A stretch of DNA of 64,000 bases, taken from the NCBI GenBank assembly GCA_963555985.3, contig OY820591.1, positions 2,304,001 to 2,368,000 on the forward strand. Reading direction: 5' to 3'. A program made the position numbers and the translations under genes. Positions within the stretch are counted from its first letter, which is position 1, and each line of letters starts with the position of its first letter. Origin of the DNA: Dehalococcoidia bacterium. Its GTDB lineage: Bacteria; Chloroflexota; Dehalococcoidia; Bin125. The notes below the pieces were generated by a model that saw only the letters and a list, made by a program, of their open reading frames with translations, did no database searches and had not been told where the DNA came from. Of the stretch, positions 2,342 to 44,393 are shown one piece after another.

Positions 2342-3643
2342 CTAGTCCTGCGGGGGCAGGCCAATCGCGCCGGAGGCTCGCAAGGCGGCGATCTCCTCGG
2401 CGCTGTAGCCATACTCGGCCAGGACTTCGTCGGTGTCGCCGTCGAGCGGGGGCGCTGCGCCTTCCGCTCGGGGCGGCGTGGCAGACATGTTGAAGGGCGG
2501 GCCAACCATCGTTTCGGGGCCGGTGATCCGGTGCTCAAGATCGGCCATGATGCCCAGGGCCTGCACCTGCGGGTCGTCGATCATCTCCTCGGGGATGTTG
2601 ACCTGGGCGGCGGGCGCGCCAGCGGCGTCGAGCTTGGCGATCCAGTTCTCGGTCGTGTCCGAGGCGAAGCGTTCCGAGATCAAGGCGCGGACACGAGCGA
2701 CGATCTCTTCCGAGCCGTCGGCCAGCGGGTTGAAATCGCCGCTGTCGGTCGGATCGTCGCCAGGCTCCAGTCCGAGTGCATTGCGCACCTGGCTGCGGTT
2801 GGGCGGCGTCACGCAGCCGAGCATGAGCGCGCCGTCGGAGGTCTGGTAGCCGCCGTAGTAGAGGAAGAAGGCGCCGCCGACGAGGGCGCGGAGTCCGCCG
2901 CGCGCGCCGAGCAGTTCGCGGTAGCTGCCGCCGCGTTCGCGGACGGCGGCGAGGCCGTTGAGGATCGGATTGAGCATGATCGCGTCGGAGACCGGCATCC
3001 GCGCAGTGAAGGCATTCTGCAAGACCAGCGCGCCGGCGAGCAGCGAGGTGTCGATCTTCTGGCCCTCGCCGGTGCGCTCGCGGTGGAAGAGCGCCGCGCA
3101 GACGGCGATCGTGCTGGTGAAGGCAGCGGCGAAATCGGCGGGCGTAGTGGCGGTGATCAGATCAGGGCCGCCGTGCTCGTCCACCTTCTCGTCGCCGGCC
3201 ATGAGGCCCGAATAGGCTTGGGCGATGATGTCCGCCCCAGCTCGGTGAGCGGAGGGGCCGGCCGGTCCGTAGGCGGTGTTCTCGAGATAGATCAACGACG
3301 GGTTGAGCGGGCGTAGGCTCTCGTAGTCGATACCCAGCCGCTCGGGCACGCCGGGTCGGGCGTTGATCAGAAAGACGTCCATCTCGGAGATCAGGCGGTG
3401 GACGACGGCCTGCCCGTCCGGGTCCTGGAGGTTGAGCACCATCCCGCGCTTGCCGCGATTGAAAACGTGGAAGCCCTTGCTCTCGCCGGGCGCGATCTGA
3501 CCGAGCAGGCGCATGCCGTCGCCGGCGGCCGATTCGATCTTGATCACGTCCGCGCCCATGTCGGAGAGCATCACTCCGCACATCGGCCCAGCGATGATCT
3601 GCGTGACTTCCAAAACTCTGACGCCATCCAGCGCTCCTGGCAT
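2342..3643 (-). CDS. Family III CoA-transferase (CaiB/BaiF), tandem paralogue
   Basis: Same motifs and same length (433 aa) as the neighbour, with extensive identity. Confidence 0.93.
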   Translation of the reverse strand: MPGALDGVRVLEVTQIIAGPMCGVMLSDMGADVIKIESAAGDGMRLLGQIAPGESKGFHVFNRGKRGMVLNLQDPDGQAVVHRLISEMDVFLINARPGVPERLGIDYESLRPLNPSLIYLENTAYGPAGPSAHRAGADIIAQAYSGLMAGDEKVDEHGGPDLITATTPADFAAAFTSTIAVCAALFHRERTGEGQKIDTSLLAGALVLQNAFTARMPVSDAIMLNPILNGLAAVRERGGSYRELLGARGGLRALVGGAFFLYYGGYQTSDGALMLGCVTPPNRSQVRNALGLEPGDDPTDSGDFNPLADGSEEIVARVRALISERFASDTTENWIAKLDAAGAPAAQVNIPEEMIDDPQVQALGIMADLEHRITGPETMVGPPFNMSATPPRAEGAAPPLDGDTDEVLAEYGYSAEEIAALRASGAIGLPPQD

Positions 3644-32769: not shown

Positions 32770-33072
32770 CTACCAGGAACTCTTGCGCACGCCCGGGAGC
32801 AGGCCCAGTGAGGCCATCTCGCGGAAGGTGATCCGCGAAAGCCCGAACTTGCGCATGTAGGCGCGCGGGCGGCCCGTGACCGCGCAGCGATTCTTGAGGC
32901 GGGTGGGACTGCTGTTGCGCGGCAACTGCTGCAACTGGAACTGAATCCGCTGCTTCTCGCCGGGCTGCTCGGTCTCGCGCAGCTGCTGCTTCAGCGACTC
33001 GCGCTTGGCCTTGTACTTCTCGTGCATCCTGCGGCGCTTCAGATCGCGGTGAATGTTGCTCTTACGGGCCAT
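32770..33072 (-). CDS. rpsN: 30S ribosomal protein S14, long Zn-independent (C-) form
   Basis: [36 protein letters not shown]...GVRKSSW, 100 aa, single Cys. Confidence 0.96.
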
Positions 33073-37581: not shown

Positions 37582-38613
37582 GTGGAATGGTTCACCGATC
37601 CATGGTCGTTTGAGTTCATGCGGCGCGCACTTCTGGCCGGGCTCATCGTGTCGGTGGCCGCAGGGATGGTCGGCGCCTTCGTCGTCCTGCGCGGTCTGGC
37701 CTTTCTTGGTGATGCGGTCGCACACACCCAGCTCGCGGGCGCCGCAGTCGCGCTGGTCCTGGGTGGAGGCGCAGTCCTGATCACACTGGGCGCCGGCGTC
37801 GCGGCGGTGCTGACGGCCTTGGGCGTGGCCCTGCTCACGCTGCGCGGGCGACTGCGCGCGGACACCGCGATCGGCATCATGTTCGCCGGGTTCTTCGCGC
37901 TCGGCGTGATGCTGATTTCGAGAGAACGCACCTTCACGATCGATCTGGGCGCATTATTGGTCGGCCACATCTTGGGCGCTTCCTGGACCGATTTGATCGT
38001 GATGGCCGCGTTAACTGCCGTTGTCACCGTGCTGGTTCTGGCCTTCCTGCCGGAGTTGCGGTTTTCGGCATACGATCCTGAGGTGGCCGCTGTCTCGGGG
38101 GTTCCGGTCACCATGATGCAGATCGGACTCCTCGTCCTGATCGCGCTGGCGACGGTGGTGGCGTTTCGGCTCGTCGGGGTGATCTTGGCGGTCGCCATGC
38201 TGGTCGCTCCGGCAGCGGCCGCGGTGCTGCTGACTCGGCGACTGGCGCTGATGATGCTGGTGGCGACCCTGATCGGTGTGTTTTCGACGGTGGTGGGCCT
38301 GTATGCATCGTTTCACTTCGATCTGGCGGCTGGACCGTCGATCGTGCTGAGCGCAGTCCTGGTGATGGTGTTCTCGTTCGTGCTCAGCCCGCGCGGACTG
38401 CGCGGGACATTGCCATCGCTTGAGTTTCTGGCCGCCGACGGCGCGGAGGAAGTTCCACCGCCAGGCTGGCGGCGAACCGCCCGCATCTGCTGGGGCGCGT
38501 GCTGTCTGGTCAGCGACGCCGGCTGGGGCGCGTGTTGCCGGGTCGGCGACGTTTGCTGGGGCGCGTGTTGCCGAGTTGGAGAACGCTTCTCGCTGCGCGG
38601 GCGGGCGGGCTAA
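37582..38613 (+). CDS. Zn/Mn ABC transporter permease (ZnuB/MntB) with Cys-rich repeat tail
   Basis: FMRRAL, GDAVAHTQLAG, DTAIGI, SAYDPEVA, VGVILAVAMLVAP, AGPSIVL. Confidence 0.9.
   Translation: MEWFTDPWSFEFMRRALLAGLIVSVAAGMVGAFVVLRGLAFLGDAVAHTQLAGAAVALVLGGGAVLITLGAGVAAVLTALGVALLTLRGRLRADTAIGIMFAGFFALGVMLISRERTFTIDLGALLVGHILGASWTDLIVMAALTAVVTVLVLAFLPELRFSAYDPEVAAVSGVPVTMMQIGLLVLIALATVVAFRLVGVILAVAMLVAPAAAAVLLTRRLALMMLVATLIGVFSTVVGLYASFHFDLAAGPSIVLSAVLVMVFSFVLSPRGLRGTLPSLEFLAADGAEEVPPPGWRRTARICWGACCLVSDAGWGACCRVGDVCWGACCRVGERFSLRGRAG
38488..38586 (+). repeat. 3 x 33-bp tandem repeat encoding (C/G)WGACCxVx(D/E)x
   Basis: Units read directly in the permease frame. Confidence 0.85.
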
Positions 38614-39202: not shown

Positions 39203-40345
39203 CTACTGATCGGCGACGGCGCGCGCGTTCGCCAGCAGAATGTCGATGTATGTCGGCTCGTCGTCGGTCGGCTGCGACCAGATCACCCGCCGCTCGACTC
39301 CGGTTTCGTCGGCGATCGTGTCCAGAATCGTGGAGTCGAACTGCGGCTCGTGGAACACGGTTTGAACGCCTTCGTGTTCGATCAGCTCGATCAGTTCGGT
39401 GATCGCCTCGGCCGAGACGCCCTGTTCCGGGCCCTCGACCAGGAAGCCCGCGACAGTCAGGTCGTAGCGGCGGGCGAAGTATCCGAATGCGTCGTGGAAC
39501 GTGAACAGCAGGCGTTTTTCGGCTGGCAGATCGGCAAGCAGCGAGCGAGCTTCTTCGTCGGCCTCGTCAATCTCGTTGAGGTAGTTGTCGCGGCGCTCGG
39601 CAATCGCCTCTTCTGCGTCCGGCTTGAGCGCGATCAACTCCGCCGCAATCGCGGTGACCGAGGCCTTGGCGATGTCGGTGTCGAACCAGAAGTGCGGGTC
39701 CTCGCCAGTGTGGTCGTGTGCGTGTTCTTCTTGCTGCTGTCCGTGTTGCTGCTCTTGTTGCTGCTGTTCCTGGTGATGCTCTTCCTGCTGCTCTTGCTCC
39801 TGCTGTTCCTGGTGATGCTCTTCCTGTTGCTCCTGCTGCTCCTGGTGATGCTCTTCCTGTTGCTCCTGGTGATGCTCTTCCTGTTGCCCCTGCTGCTCCT
39901 CCTGCTGACCGTGTTCCTGCTGTTCCTGGTGATGTTCCTCATCGGAGCCGATCATGCCCTCGAACGGATGCAACTCGTGTCCCATCGCTTCGACGGCATT
40001 GGCCAGCTCGAGCAGGTTGCCCGCGTTCTCTTCGACCGCCTCCTCATAAGCGGATTCCAGTCCGGCGCCATTGATGATCACGAGATCGGCCTCGGCGACC
40101 GCACGGATGTCGTCAACACTGACCTCGAACGTGTGCGCATCAGCGCCAGCGGGGACAAGCGCCCGTACATCGACGAGATCGCCGCCGACCTCGCGCGTCC
40201 AATCGGCGATCACCTGGGTTGAGACGACCACCTGGAGCGGCGCGGCGTCGCCGTCGTCGCTGCCGCAGGCGAGCAACGCCAACGGCGCGAGCAGCGTTGC
40301 CGCGAACACAGCGACGCGCAGCGTCAACCTTCGAAAACGGGGCAT
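39203..40345 (-). CDS. Zn/Mn ABC substrate-binding lipoprotein (ZnuA/AdcA-like) with EEHHQEQQ repeat loop
   Basis: Lipobox LLAC, GADAHTFE, NGAGLE, DPHFW, FHDAFGYF. Confidence 0.92.
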   Translation of the reverse strand: MPRFRRLTLRVAVFAATLLAPLALLACGSDDGDAAPLQVVVSTQVIADWTREVGGDLVDVRALVPAGADAHTFEVSVDDIRAVAEADLVIINGAGLESAYEEAVEENAGNLLELANAVEAMGHELHPFEGMIGSDEEHHQEQQEHGQQEEQQGQQEEHHQEQQEEHHQEQQEQQEEHHQEQQEQEQQEEHHQEQQQQEQQHGQQQEEHAHDHTGEDPHFWFDTDIAKASVTAIAAELIALKPDAEEAIAERRDNYLNEIDEADEEARSLLADLPAEKRLLFTFHDAFGYFARRYDLTVAGFLVEGPEQGVSAEAITELIELIEHEGVQTVFHEPQFDSTILDTIADETGVERRVIWSQPTDDEPTYIDILLANARAVADQ

Positions 40346-40573
40346 GAGGAGCGAGTTCTAGGCAGCCGGGGCGTCTGGACAAGCCCGCAACGCTGCATAT
40401 CTCTTGGTCTGGGCGTCAGGCTACCACATCGGCGCGGCCACTCCAGCGGCGAGCCAGATCGCGGGGCACTGCACAGACGGTGAAGAATCTGTTAGATTGC
40501 GGCGAGCGTTCTGGATCGGCTGCGATTCCCGTTCGATCCTGGGTTTCCCCCAGGCGAGTGAGGCTAGTCAGGA

Positions 40574-41728
40574 ATGTCCCGCAGCGGCCCCAGCGACGGC
40601 GATTCGGCGGCCGTACCCAGCGGCCGCGCCGCTGCGTCTGCCAGCCACGATCACGACGACCACGCCGGGCACGATTATCACGACCACGATGATCACTCCG
40701 GCCACGACCACGCCGGACACGATCATCACGACCACGATGATCACTCCGGCCACGACCACGCCGGGCACGACCATCACGACCATGATGATCACTCCGGCCA
40801 CGACCATCACGACCATGCGCACGACTTGCGCGAGGCGAGCCGGCGCACGCTAATCATCTCGCTCGGCATCATCCTGTTCTTCATGGTCGTCGAGATCGTC
40901 GGCGGCATCCTCTCCGGCTCGCTGGCCCTGCTCGCCGACGCTGGCCACATGGCGACCGACGCCGGCGCCATCGCCCTGGCGCTGATCGCAATGTGGGTCG
41001 CGAATCGGCCTTCCTCGGTCGACCGCACTTTCGGCTTCGCTCGCACCGAGATCCTCGCTGCGTTCGTCAACATTCTCACGCTCTGGCTGATCTCCGGTTG
41101 GGTGATCTGGGAAGCGGTGCACCGGATCGGCGGCGAGCCGGAAGTCGAAGGCGTGTTGATGACCGCGGTCGGCGTGGTCGGCCTGATCGTCAACATCATC
41201 GTCGCCTACATCCTGCACGGCTCGTCGGAACACAGCCTCAACGTCCAGGGCGCATTCCTCCACGTACTCGGAGACCTGCTGGGGTCGATCGCCGTGATCG
41301 TGTCCGGCGCCCTGGTGATGGGGTTCGGCTGGAATCTGGCCGACCCGATCGTCAGCATCATCATCGGCGTCTTCATCCTCTTCCTCTCCTACCGGCCGGC
41401 GATGCAGATCTTCCACGTGCTGATCGAAGGCGTTCCGCCTCACATCGACCTCTACGCGCTCTGCCATGAGATCGAGGAGATCGAAGGGGTAACCGTCATC
41501 CACGACGTCCATGCCTGGACGATCACATCCGGCTACGACTCGATCTCGGCGCACATCATGGTCGACCACGAGCACCCGAACCGGCAGAGCATTCTCGATG
41601 AGGCGGTCGTGATCGCGCGCCACCGGTACAACCTCAGCCACATCACCTTCCAGGTCGAGACATCGGTCGAGGGTTGCACCGAAGACCACCATGTCGGCCA
41701 TCTCGAAGCGACGTCTCGCGCAAGGTGA
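40574..41728 (+). CDS. Cation diffusion facilitator (CzcD/ZitB-like) with His-rich N-terminal repeat
   Basis: SLALLADAGHMATD, LNVQGAFLHVLGDLLGS, HDVHAWTI, HITFQVE. Confidence 0.94.
   Translation: MSRSGPSDGDSAAVPSGRAAASASHDHDDHAGHDYHDHDDHSGHDHAGHDHHDHDDHSGHDHAGHDHHDHDDHSGHDHHDHAHDLREASRRTLIISLGIILFFMVVEIVGGILSGSLALLADAGHMATDAGAIALALIAMWVANRPSSVDRTFGFARTEILAAFVNILTLWLISGWVIWEAVHRIGGEPEVEGVLMTAVGVVGLIVNIIVAYILHGSSEHSLNVQGAFLHVLGDLLGSIAVIVSGALVMGFGWNLADPIVSIIIGVFILFLSYRPAMQIFHVLIEGVPPHIDLYALCHEIEEIEGVTVIHDVHAWTITSGYDSISAHIMVDHEHPNRQSILDEAVVIARHRYNLSHITFQVETSVEGCTEDHHVGHLEATSRAR
40661..40804 (+). repeat. 3 x 48-bp tandem repeat encoding HAGHDHHDHDDHSGHD
   Basis: Units start at 40661, 40709 and 40757. 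Confidence 0.9.
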
Positions 41729-41782
41729 GCTGATTCCAGAGTGCGTACAGTTCGCCGGCAACGGCGATGAAAGGGAGGAACC

Positions 41783-41971
41783 ATGACGACAGCGGCCCAC
41801 ACCCATCGGTACGAGCACACCGAGCACCACGCGCACAGCGCGACCGAGGTGGCCGAGCACGACCACTGCCAGAGCGAGCACGAGTGCAGTTGCGACCACA
41901 GCGAGCACTGCTGCTGCTGCGTGGACTCCAGCTGCGCCAGCGGCGACTGCGACTGCCACAGCGCCGACTAG
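41783..41971 (+). CDS. Metallothionein-like His/Cys-rich small protein (62 aa)
   Basis: Strong RBS AAAGGGAGGAA, 10 Cys + 12 His, GC3-biased codons, directly after the CDF gene. Confidence 0.8.
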   Translation: MTTAAHTHRYEHTEHHAHSATEVAEHDHCQSEHECSCDHSEHCCCCVDSSCASGDCDCHSAD

Positions 41972-41994
41972 CGATCGACGCTCCGGGACAAGCG

Positions 41995-42465
41995 TCAGGC
42001 GGTCCTCAGCGCTTTGAGGACCGCCTGGCCGTGATCCGCGGCCCTGGCTCGTTTCCAAACCTTGGCCAGCACGCCGTCCGGACCGATCACGAACGTGGCC
42101 CGGTTCATGCCAATGCTCTTGCGCCCGTAGAGCGTCTTCTCACCCCAGGCGCCGTAGCGCGTCGCCACTTCCGCCTCGGTGTCAACGAGGAGCGGGAAGT
42201 TCAGTTCGTATTTCGCGCGGAACTGCTGATGAGATTCGGCGGAATCGGTGGAGACGCCCAACACTGTCGCCCCCTCCGCGCCGATCTCCGCCAGCTCGTC
42301 GCGGAACGAACACGCCTGCTTCGTACAGCCCGGCGTGTCGTCGCGCGGGTAGAAATAGAGCACGACGGTCTGCCCGGCGTAGTCGGACAGCCGGTGCAGC
42401 TTCCCATCCTGGTCGGGCAATGCGAAATCAGGCGCCGGATCGCCCTTGGCCAGAGTCACAGGCAC
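41995..42465 (-). CDS. bcp: Peroxiredoxin BCP/PrxQ
   Basis: APDFALPDQDG, YFYPRDDTPGCTKQAC. GTG start with RBS GAGGA. Confidence 0.93.
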   Translation of the reverse strand: MPVTLAKGDPAPDFALPDQDGKLHRLSDYAGQTVVLYFYPRDDTPGCTKQACSFRDELAEIGAEGATVLGVSTDSAESHQQFRAKYELNFPLLVDTEAEVATRYGAWGEKTLYGRKSIGMNRATFVIGPDGVLAKVWKRARAADHGQAVLKALRTA

Positions 42466-42920: not shown

Positions 42921-44393
42921 ATGATGATCATACGAAAAAACTGGCTCCACGCGACGCTCGTGGGCGCGGCGCTTACGTTCGCCCTCGCCGCGTGCAGCGA
43001 CGATCCCCAAGAAGCTCCCGCAGCCGCGCAAACCGAGCAACAGCAGCAACAGCCTGTCGAGCAGCCGCAACCCGCAGAGTCCGCCGATCCGCAGCAGACA
43101 CAGGAACAACCAACCCAAACCGCCGCAACTCAGCAAGCGACTCAACCGCAACAGCAGGCGACTCAGGCCGCAGCGCAAGCCCAGCAGGCGCAGCAGCAGG
43201 ACGACACTCTCGCCGACATCACTCCGGTCACTACCTTTCTCCCCCGCGACGCGACCGAGACCCCCGAAGGCATCCCGATCATCCGCGACTCGCAGACGCC
43301 GCAGTACTTCGGCCTCGACTGGTCCACCCACTGGGGCATCCGCATCGTCGCGCTCGAAGAACTCTCGCAAGGCGCCGCCCGCGACGCGATCCCCGCGATC
43401 AGCGCGCCCCGCTACTGGACGATCGAAGAAGCGGCGGTCGTCTACACCGACAACGTGCCCCTAGTCCAGGTTCGCGTCGGCGACGACGTGCGCGGCTTCC
43501 CGCTCGAAATCCTCACCTGGCACGAGATCGTCAACGATACGATCGGCGGCAAGCCGCTCACGATCACCTTCTGTCCGCTCTGCAATACCGCGATCGCCTT
43601 CGAGTCCCAGATTGGCGAAGAGATCTTCATCTTCGGCGTCTCCGGCCTGCTCCGAAACTCCGACCTGGTCATGTACGACCGCAACACCGAGTCGCTCTGG
43701 CAGCAGTCCTCGGGGCGAGCCATCGTCGGCACGATGGTCGGGGCCCGACTCAACTACCTGCCTGCCTCAGTCGTCAGCCTCGGACAACTCCGCGCCGCCT
43801 ATCCCGACGCGCTCGTGATGTCCCGCGATACCGGCTGGAATCGTCCCTACGGGCAGAACCCCTACCAGGGTTATGACAACCCCGAACACGGCGGCCCCTA
43901 CGGGTTCTTCTTCGACCGCGACAGCGTCGACCCGCGCCTGCCGCCCGCAGAGCGCGTCGTCAGTGTCGAAGGCCCCTCCGGCGCCGCCGTCGCCTACCCC
44001 TGGTCTGCGCTCTCCGAGCAGCGCGTCCTTCACGACAGTTTCGACGGCATCGCGCTGGTCGTCTTCTGGACACCCGGCGCGCTCTCCGTCCTCGACTCCG
44101 GCAACCTCGCCCAAGCCCGCGAGATTGGTACCACCGCCGTCTTCGAGACCACCCTCGAAGGAGTCGGCCCACTCACCTTCACACCCAATCCCGGCGATCC
44201 CGACGGTCAAACCTTCATGGACGCCGAGACCGGCTCCACTTGGGACATCTTCGGCCGCGCGATCGCAGGCGAATTGGCCGGGTCAGAATTGACCCGCGTG
44301 ATCCACTCCGACCACTTCTGGTTCGCCTGGCAGGCGTTCCACCCCGAGACCGAGGTGGTCGACGAATCCACCATCGCCGACGCCGGCGAGTAG
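42921..44393 (+). CDS. DUF3179-domain lipoprotein with Gln/Pro/Ala-rich linker
   Basis: Lipobox LAAC, HEIVND, TFCPLCNT, FGVSGLLRNSDLVMYDRNTESLWQQ, FWFAWQAFHPET. Confidence 0.9.
   Translation: MMIIRKNWLHATLVGAALTFALAACSDDPQEAPAAAQTEQQQQQPVEQPQPAESADPQQTQEQPTQTAATQQATQPQQQATQAAAQAQQAQQQDDTLADITPVTTFLPRDATETPEGIPIIRDSQTPQYFGLDWSTHWGIRIVALEELSQGAARDAIPAISAPRYWTIEEAAVVYTDNVPLVQVRVGDDVRGFPLEILTWHEIVNDTIGGKPLTITFCPLCNTAIAFESQIGEEIFIFGVSGLLRNSDLVMYDRNTESLWQQSSGRAIVGTMVGARLNYLPASVVSLGQLRAAYPDALVMSRDTGWNRPYGQNPYQGYDNPEHGGPYGFFFDRDSVDPRLPPAERVVSVEGPSGAAVAYPWSALSEQRVLHDSFDGIALVVFWTPGALSVLDSGNLAQAREIGTTAVFETTLEGVGPLTFTPNPGDPDGQTFMDAETGSTWDIFGRAIAGELAGSELTRVIHSDHFWFAWQAFHPETEVVDESTIADAGE

Follow-up and report, generated by a model that had tools for sequence, protein, structure and literature searches.

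A small Cys/His-rich gene paired with a ZitB-like exporter gene in Chloroflexota encodes a candidate metallothionein-like protein of a lineage-restricted family

Introduction

Few families of bacterial metallothioneins are known. The zinc cluster of SmtA has the composition Zn4Cys9His2. Metallothioneins are described as proteins that hold several metal ions in metal-thiolate clusters and fold on metal binding (PMC7558416). By 2020, SmtA and MymT were the only bacterial members whose biological function had been investigated (PMC7387436). The conserved core of the SmtA/BmtA family is described as a set of zinc-finger-fold residues (PMC7558416), and the two cluster domains of eukaryotic metallothioneins as Zn3Cys9 and Zn4Cys11 (PMC10243857). 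Outside the metallothioneins, Hpn and Hpn-2 from gastric Helicobacter are reported to bind Ni and to act in metal sequestration (PMC4671568).

Metal ions are also handled by CDF exporters. The Zn-CDF group is marked by a His four residues before the conserved Asp of TMD II, an HxxxD motif in TMD V and a His-rich terminus, and its members move Zn and sometimes Co, Cd or Ni (PMC1868760). Zur of Streptomyces coelicolor is described as repressing znuA and activating zitB (PMC5472717; PMC11077047).

Here, we describe a small Cys/His-rich gene that lies directly downstream of a Zn-type CDF gene within a zinc-uptake cluster of a Dehalococcoidia bacterium. The window analysed is a stretch of 64,000 nucleotides (assembly GCA_963555985.3, contig OY820591.1, positions 2,304,001 to 2,368,000 of the forward strand), and the positions given below are those of the window unless a locus is named (Table 1).

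Table 1. Positions of the small gene, its neighbours and the repeat-containing genes found at related exporter loci.
Feature	Position	Strand	Remarks
ZnuB-type ABC-3 permease	37582..38613	+	PF00950, 216 bits; zinc-uptake cluster around the module
ZnuA-type zinc-binding lipoprotein	39203..40345	-	PF01297, 215.6 bits; runs divergently from the CDF gene and flanks the module on its other side
ZitB-like Zn-type CDF exporter	40574-41728	+	PF01545, 146 bits; TIGR01297, 273 bits
Spacer, CDF stop to small-gene start	41729..41782	+	54 nt; from the sequence
Ribosome-binding site GGGAGG	41773..41778	+	4 nt ahead of the small-gene ATG
Small Cys/His-rich protein gene (62 aa)	41783..41971	+	ORF and composition; stop codon included
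Bcp-type peroxiredoxin (AhpC/TSA)	41995..42465	-	Convergent with the small gene; flank marker of the module
13-bp G+C-rich hairpin	41997..42026	.	26 nt past the small-gene stop, inside the 3' end of bcp
HECD[DE]HEHH-repeat gene, L022	1039-1239		Coordinates on the reverse complement of the locus
HECD[DE]HEHH-repeat gene, L023	889-1086		Coordinates on the reverse complement of the locus
HECD[DE]HEHH-repeat gene, L024	1039-1239		Coordinates on the reverse complement of the locus
HECD[DE]HEHH-repeat gene, L024, in the locus's own coordinates	2881-3081	-	
HECD[DE]HEHH-repeat gene, L025	1023-1223		Coordinates on the reverse complement of the locus
HECD[DE]HEHH-repeat gene, L026	888-1085		Coordinates on the reverse complement of the locus
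HECD[DE]HEHH-repeat open frame, L036	1465-1722		On the reverse complement

Composition and layout of the small protein

The small gene runs from ATG to TAG over 62 codons, and its translation is MTTAAHTHRYEHTEHHAHSATEVAEHDHCQSEHECSCDHSEHCCCCVDSSCASGDCDCHSAD. The encoded protein (6.82 kDa, pI 5.2, GRAVY -0.90) contains 10 Cys and 12 His along with 13 acidic residues (Asp and Glu) and a single basic one (Arg). It has one Tyr and neither Phe nor Trp, and its aliphatic content includes two Val with no Leu or Ile; no hydrophobic N-terminal stretch is visible in the sequence. Residues 1-28 hold eight of the 12 His. All 10 Cys fall within residues 29-58, where they follow the pattern C-x5-CxC-x5-CCCC-x4-C-x4-CxC and are interspersed with the remaining four His. 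The longest His run is HH. Cys accounts for 16% of the protein (10/62), towards the lower end of the range for metallothioneins; the His share is higher, at 19%.

These features agree with the initial annotation of the locus, which had counted 10 Cys and 12 His in 62 residues with a CCCC run and had divided the protein into a His-rich N-terminal and a Cys-rich C-terminal half. The strong ribosome-binding site that it named is present as GGGAGG, with the correction that the distance from GGAGG to the ATG is short (4-5 nt). The gene also lies, as proposed there, immediately downstream of a Zn-type CDF exporter, which ends 54 nt upstream.

The start of the small gene is not in doubt because the open frame extends only four codons further 5' of the ATG (66 aa). 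In relatives, the 54-nt spacer ahead of the gene is poorly conserved, whereas the ribosome-binding site and the ORF are conserved: AGGAG or GGAGG precedes the ATG in all five versions for which upstream sequence was compared, and the rest of the spacer diverges. An AF2 model of the protein without metal has a pLDDT of 47.6 and no confident fold. Such a low-confidence model is compatible with a metal-dependent fold and lends it no support.

Coding status and selection

The GC content of the small gene by codon position is 0.59, 0.51 and 0.94, and its third-position value exceeds those of the neighbouring CDF (0.85) and bcp (0.79) genes. Five distinct DNA versions of the gene are available from relatives. 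All 10 pairs among them have dN/dS values of 0.00-0.33, and one pair differs by 11 synonymous and no non-synonymous changes. Among five protein variants, 18 of the 62 columns vary, and none of these falls on the 22 Cys/His columns (hypergeometric P = 6e-5, taking columns as independent, in sequences that are related). A sixth variant, from genome G481, likewise keeps every Cys and His, so that all 22 are invariant in six variants. Identity to the window's proteins in relatives is 79-84% for the small protein, compared with 85-87% for the CDF, 82-86% for Bcp and 65-69% for SnoaL; the small protein is therefore within the range of conservation of its neighbours.

Composition provides a further line of evidence. 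The genome, a 3.33-Mb assembly with 65% G+C, contains 26,448 six-frame ORFs of at least 40 aa, and only one of them, the ORF at 41783-41971, has both Cys and His at six or more per 62 residues. Many other Cys-rich ORFs occur in the genome, all without His, and they have the look of out-of-frame readings of repeat DNA. Because of these spurious ORFs, the CCCC run alone would mean little. The mixed Cys/His composition, by comparison, is not a chance product. Judged by codon usage, substitution pattern, local conservation and composition, 41783-41971 is a protein-coding gene under purifying selection concentrated on potential metal ligands.

A separate cluster of His-free ORFs, each C/S/A-rich with 18-34 Cys, lies outside the window, on contig C1 of genome G000 at ~2,608,000-2,676,000 and at 2,768,557. 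These ORFs look like off-frame readings of CAG/GCA-type repeats; if so, that part of the contig would hold several genes rich in repeats.

Homologues and distribution

The small protein has very few detectable relatives. It matches nothing in Pfam, including the SmtA/BmtA model, or in NCBIfam. Searches of PDB sequences, with both the single sequence and a profile, return nothing at E up to 10, and the ESM Atlas offers no usable match. A word-indexed search of 5.8 billion proteins finds one cluster, P0002 (62 aa, 82% identity), and an exhaustive comparison by phmmer with 1.84 billion cluster representatives recovers the same cluster as the only homologue. P0002 is called as a gene in at least one public assembly. 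Another phmmer match, P0003 (646 aa), was rejected as a tandem-repeat sequence unrelated to the small protein. Because the phmmer search has no length limit, it extends to fused or longer forms, and neither a CDF-small fusion nor a longer form was found among the 1.84 billion representatives.

At the level of genomes, a profile search detects the small gene in 6 of 65 members of the window's Chloroflexota family, with one copy per genome. The six carriers are the window's own genome and 5 of 37 genomes of one neighbouring genus, and the gene was not found in 24 genomes of the same class outside the family. Weak genome matches at E values of 0.015-0.55 were also followed up; the six that were translated (L003-L008) are all noise. 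Pattern scans identify the gene in three MAG records, labelled Chloroflexota or Dehalococcoidia bacterium, and in two metagenome contigs. The small protein is clearly dispensable for most relatives of its carriers.

The initial annotation had proposed an undescribed family, a proposal that the lack of matches in Pfam, NCBIfam and PDB sequences supports, and had suggested a search for homologues next to CDF genes. Conserved homologues do occur, and in all six carrier genomes the gene lies directly downstream of the same Zn-type CDF gene. Its remark that the protein lacks the SmtA/BmtA pattern also holds, as PF02069 (Metallothio_Pro) gives no match at E up to 10 with four variants of the protein. 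A six-frame search of the genome with PF02069 likewise misses the small ORF, its sole match lying elsewhere and scoring 14.4 bits against a cut-off of 33 bits. As far as sequence comparison can tell, the small protein does not belong to the SmtA/BmtA family or match any other described one, and it is lineage-restricted and new by sequence. No description of such a protein was found in the literature searched, which comprised open-access papers without their supplements.

The exporter gene and its zinc neighbourhood

The partner gene encodes a protein with HMATD in TMD II, HVLGD in TMD V and a His/Asp-rich N-terminus, and it thus carries the Zn-CDF signature of paired HxxxD motifs and a His-rich terminus. 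Its best equivalog is ZitB. We refer to it as ZitB-like and not as ZitB because its score of 228 bits is below the cut-off of 408 bits. The N-terminal extension of the CDF (40574-40830, +) consists of DHHDHDDHSGHDHAGH-type units, free of Cys, in near-perfect repetition, and it varies in length and sequence between orthologues.

The two genes sit within a znuB-orn-znuA zinc-uptake cluster. In the ZnuA homologue, a loop of His/Glu/Gln repeats (residues ~135-215, EEHHQEQQ-type units) is unusually long, and on the opposite strand its repeats give rise to long spurious ORFs rich in Leu/Val or in Cys. A Pfam scan of the five immediate neighbours and 17 further genes (31.2 to 53.6 kb) assigns them to transport, redox and housekeeping families or gives no match. 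Among the neighbours scanned, there is no copper or nickel gene within ~5 kb on either side of the module, and no regulator gene; the genome's only Fur-family gene is ~2.3 Mb away. The znuA-CDF intergenic region has no inverted repeat and the module no recognisable Zur box, the alignment of this region from five genomes being too poor to define one. By analogy with S. coelicolor, the divergent layout of znuA and the CDF gene would suit dual control of the Zur type.

Two other genes of the region deserve mention. The product of the gene at 42921-44393 (+) is a DUF3179 protein (320.6 bits) whose N-terminal linker is Gln-rich; the gene is conserved beside SnoaL-bcp in all loci examined. The stand-alone gene at 32773-33072 (-), ~9 kb from the zinc cluster, encodes ribosomal protein S14 in its long form (100 aa), which has a single Cys and so no zinc ribbon, and it adjoins a ferredoxin-thioredoxin-reductase-like gene.

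A two-gene module and its comings and goings

The CDF and small genes are predicted to be co-transcribed because the 54-nt spacer between them holds no promoter-like or terminator-like site; a scan of 40200-42200 finds none of either kind. The possibility of a read-through fusion of the two proteins was considered and rejected, as two TGA stops (41726 and 41768) separate the ORFs. The shared frame of the two ORFs in the window is a coincidence, since their frames differ in genome G030. Downstream of the small gene, a 77-nt stretch that bears the hairpin folds at -44.9 kcal/mol (z = -5.1), and none of 200 shuffles folds as well. The hairpin has no T-run, is conserved in G030 and could function as a terminator in both directions or as a stabiliser.

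The module has the same position in all six carrier genomes (6/6): the order is znuB, orn, znuA, the divergent CDF gene followed directly by the small gene, and a convergent bcp gene or bcp fragment. For comparison, 30 orthologous bcp loci were fetched from the family and mapped. The CDF and small genes lie between znuA and bcp in three of them. In 24 others, znuA adjoins bcp with neither gene present, and in a further three, orn adjoins bcp. No locus has the CDF gene without the small gene or the reverse (0/30). Since the remaining 27 of 30 loci miss both genes, the two appear to be gained or lost as a unit. A relaxed tblastn search for small-gene remnants in these 27 module-less loci gave low-complexity matches only. 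The conserved linkage reflects few independent events, because the carriers are close kin (~80% identity, 6/65 genomes).

In two of the carriers, G080 and G481, the module resides in a second znuB-orn-znuA island (L015 on G080:C7 and L068 on G481:C1, respectively). This second island ends in a bcp fragment of 43 codons (residues 113-155), and G080 also has an intact bcp-znuA locus without the module (L044 on G080:C42). This arrangement suggests that the zinc island has moved laterally or been duplicated among close relatives.

A second small-protein family at related exporters

CDF orthologues that are more distant (~55% identity) belong to two other genera and occur without the Cys10His12 gene. 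In five of the five such loci examined, an ORF of 65-66 aa lies just upstream of the CDF gene and consists of HECD[DE]HEHH repeats joined by GDEPGHVHD linkers. These five ORFs have their own ribosome-binding sites and GC3 values of 0.82-0.94. A sixth case, from another family, again lies just upstream of a ZitB-like CDF gene, which brings the count to 6/6 loci. In one of the loci (L024), the small gene, the CDF gene, a Fur/Zur-like gene and znuA follow one another in that order. No such small gene accompanies four CDF paralogues (~70% identity) that are found in different contexts.

The HECD[DE]HEHH-repeat family comprises 31 unnamed clusters with lengths of 36-103 aa, has no match in Pfam and was found in only one of 401 genomes drawn from across the phylum. 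Each repeat contains one Cys, which amounts to four per protein in the loci of family f1 and two to five among database members. Like the small protein of the window, its members are acidic and His-rich, have conserved Cys and are encoded beside a ZitB-like CDF gene in Chloroflexota. In contrast to the small protein, they are encoded upstream of the CDF gene, contain internal repeats and lack a Cys cluster. Homology between the two families was rejected (BLASTP E = 1.5; hhalign probability 0.4%). The HECD[DE]HEHH proteins may be Hpn-like zinc-binding partners of the exporter. The occurrence of two unrelated small families at orthologous exporters strengthens the case for a joint action of such proteins and the pump.

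Comparison with described metal-binding proteins

By composition, the small protein falls within the working definition of a metallothionein, being small, with Cys in CxC and CC motifs and almost no aromatic residues. Its mass is below the customary limit of ~10 kDa, its CxC/CC Cys (10/62) are invariant in six variants, and with one Tyr it has few aromatics and no hydrophobic core. The eukaryotic metallothioneins share the CxC and CC motifs, the near absence of aromatics, the low mass and, probably, a metal-dependent fold. They differ in that Cys typically makes up about 30% of their residues, compared with 16% in the small protein. About half of the potential ligands of the small protein are His, and its N-terminal half has His only. 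None of the Pfam metallothionein families matches it.

SmtA/BmtA proteins are small and cytosolic, combine Cys with His ligands, are linked to zinc handling and have a ligand count suited to ~4 metals, features that the small protein shares or is predicted to share. However, their zinc-finger-fold core residues were not found in the small protein by profile, and the latter contains many more His (12) as well as a CCCC run. The genetic setting differs as well: the small gene is paired with an exporter gene, not with a gene for an SmtB-type repressor.

MymT, in turn, is described as a very small, Cys-rich product of an ORF that annotation had overlooked and that is confined to one lineage (PMC7558416), and the small protein is likewise very small, Cys-rich and confined to one lineage. 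It is larger than MymT (6.8 vs 4.9 kDa), is much richer in His and has a zinc and not a copper context. No MymT-like similarity was detected in Pfam, NCBIfam or the 1.84 billion representatives, libraries that may not include MymT.

Both Hpn and Hpn-2, as described, share with the small protein a length of ~60 aa, an acidic and His-rich composition, adjacent Cys and a restriction to one lineage (PMC4671568). The very high His content in long stretches that characterises Hpn is absent from the small protein, in which His is 12/62 with no run beyond HH. According to the same source, Hpn has 28 His among 60 residues, in long runs, and two Cys pairs (PMC4671568), in contrast to the 12 dispersed His and 10 Cys of the small protein. 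No homology to Hpn was found, and the context of the small gene is Zn export, not Ni or urease.

Discussion

The small protein is probably a cytosolic metallothionein-like buffer of Zn or Cd that is co-expressed with the CDF exporter. In the mechanism that we propose, this small acidic protein would fold only on binding metal. The 10 Cys and four His of its C-terminal part would form a metal-thiolate/imidazole cluster holding about four divalent ions, a number expected by analogy with the M4Cys11 and Zn4Cys9His2 clusters of eukaryotic metallothioneins and SmtA. The His/Glu/Asp-rich N-terminal half, with eight His, would add weaker, faster-exchanging capture sites. Transcribed together with the ZitB-like CDF gene as a two-gene module, the small gene would supply a protein that buffers Zn(II) (or Cd or Co) when the cytosolic level rises, while the pump removes the ions. 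Metal binding, metal identity, stoichiometry, co-transcription and regulation are thus what we infer from sequence and gene context.

The evidence for zinc buffering comprises the HxxxD/HxxxD CDF with its His-rich terminus, the zinc-uptake genes on the flanks and the 6/6 linkage, together with a metallothionein-type make-up (6.8 kDa, 16% Cys in CxC/CC motifs, one aromatic residue and no hydrophobic core). The coding evidence, the invariance of the 22 Cys/His, the joint gain or loss of the two genes and the parallel HECD[DE]HEHH-repeat genes at related exporters also speak for it. Several points count against it: a Cys share at the low end for metallothioneins is exceeded by the His share (16% and 19%), the family is tiny and closely related, and neither a regulator gene nor a Zur box lies beside the module.

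It is rather unlikely that the small protein serves instead as a dedicated partner of the exporter, handing Zn to the CDF or acting as a detached regulatory tail. Such a role would fit the strict linkage of two genes that are gained or lost together and the presence of an unrelated His-rich family at orthologous CDF genes in 6/6 loci examined. A broader version, in which soluble His/Cys-rich proteins are dedicated partners of ZitB-type CDFs that deliver Zn or gate the pump, as CopZ does for copper ATPases, and in which two unrelated Chloroflexota families have converged on this role, is just as doubtful. We know of no soluble CDF chaperone. Zn-CDFs are described as commonly carrying cytoplasmic His-rich regions that are thought to bind metal, but E. 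coli ZitB functions without its His-rich termini according to the same account (PMC1868760), and the 1.84 billion representatives include no fused form of the CDF and the small protein. Sequestration of another metal, whether as Ni or Co storage in the manner of Hpn or as Cu(I) detoxification in the manner of MymT, is more improbable still. Its appeal lies in the 19% His combined with adjacent Cys, in the example of MymT, likewise a small non-annotated Cys-rich ORF, which is described as binding Cu(I) (PMC7558416), and in the report that transport by Zn-CDFs may extend to Co, Cd and Ni (PMC1868760). However, the neighbours are zinc genes (znuA, znuB and the HxxxD/HxxxD CDF), the ~5 kb to each side contain no gene for Cu or Ni, poly-His runs of more than two residues are absent, and searches revealed no sequence similarity to other families of proteins.

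Two further readings are very improbable. A small protein whose distinct N-terminal half is followed by a Cys-rich C-terminal core, encoded next to a thiol peroxidase gene, could resemble a RiPP precursor with a His-rich leader or a redox-active Cys-rich peptide. Yet the 5 + 17 neighbours include no radical-SAM, lanthipeptide, YcaO, protease or exporter gene of the kind such a pathway would use, and the only co-oriented neighbour is the CDF gene, bcp being convergent. The remaining reading, that the ORF is a chance or decaying sequence without function, could appeal to the narrow distribution (6/65 family genomes), the absence of a known domain and the many spurious His-free Cys-rich ORFs of the genome. 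It is strongly disfavoured by the dN/dS values of 0.00-0.33, including the pair with 11 synonymous and 0 non-synonymous changes, and by a GC3 of 0.94, a start and ribosome-binding site conserved amid a diverging spacer, 22/22 invariant Cys/His and a mixed composition found in one ORF of 26,448.

Under the favoured reading of a co-expressed zinc buffer, the small protein would be a lineage-restricted case of a known function, the sequestration of metal by a small Cys/His-rich protein. A third metallothionein family, unrelated in sequence to the others, would broaden the picture of bacterial zinc buffering, and this one would stand out by a ligand set that is half His and half Cys and by a fixed genetic pairing with a CDF gene. 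The two-gene module is, moreover, small and portable. The presence of an unrelated His-rich family beside orthologous CDF genes suggests that CDF pumps may in general have soluble, metal-binding partners, a feature that has been overlooked.
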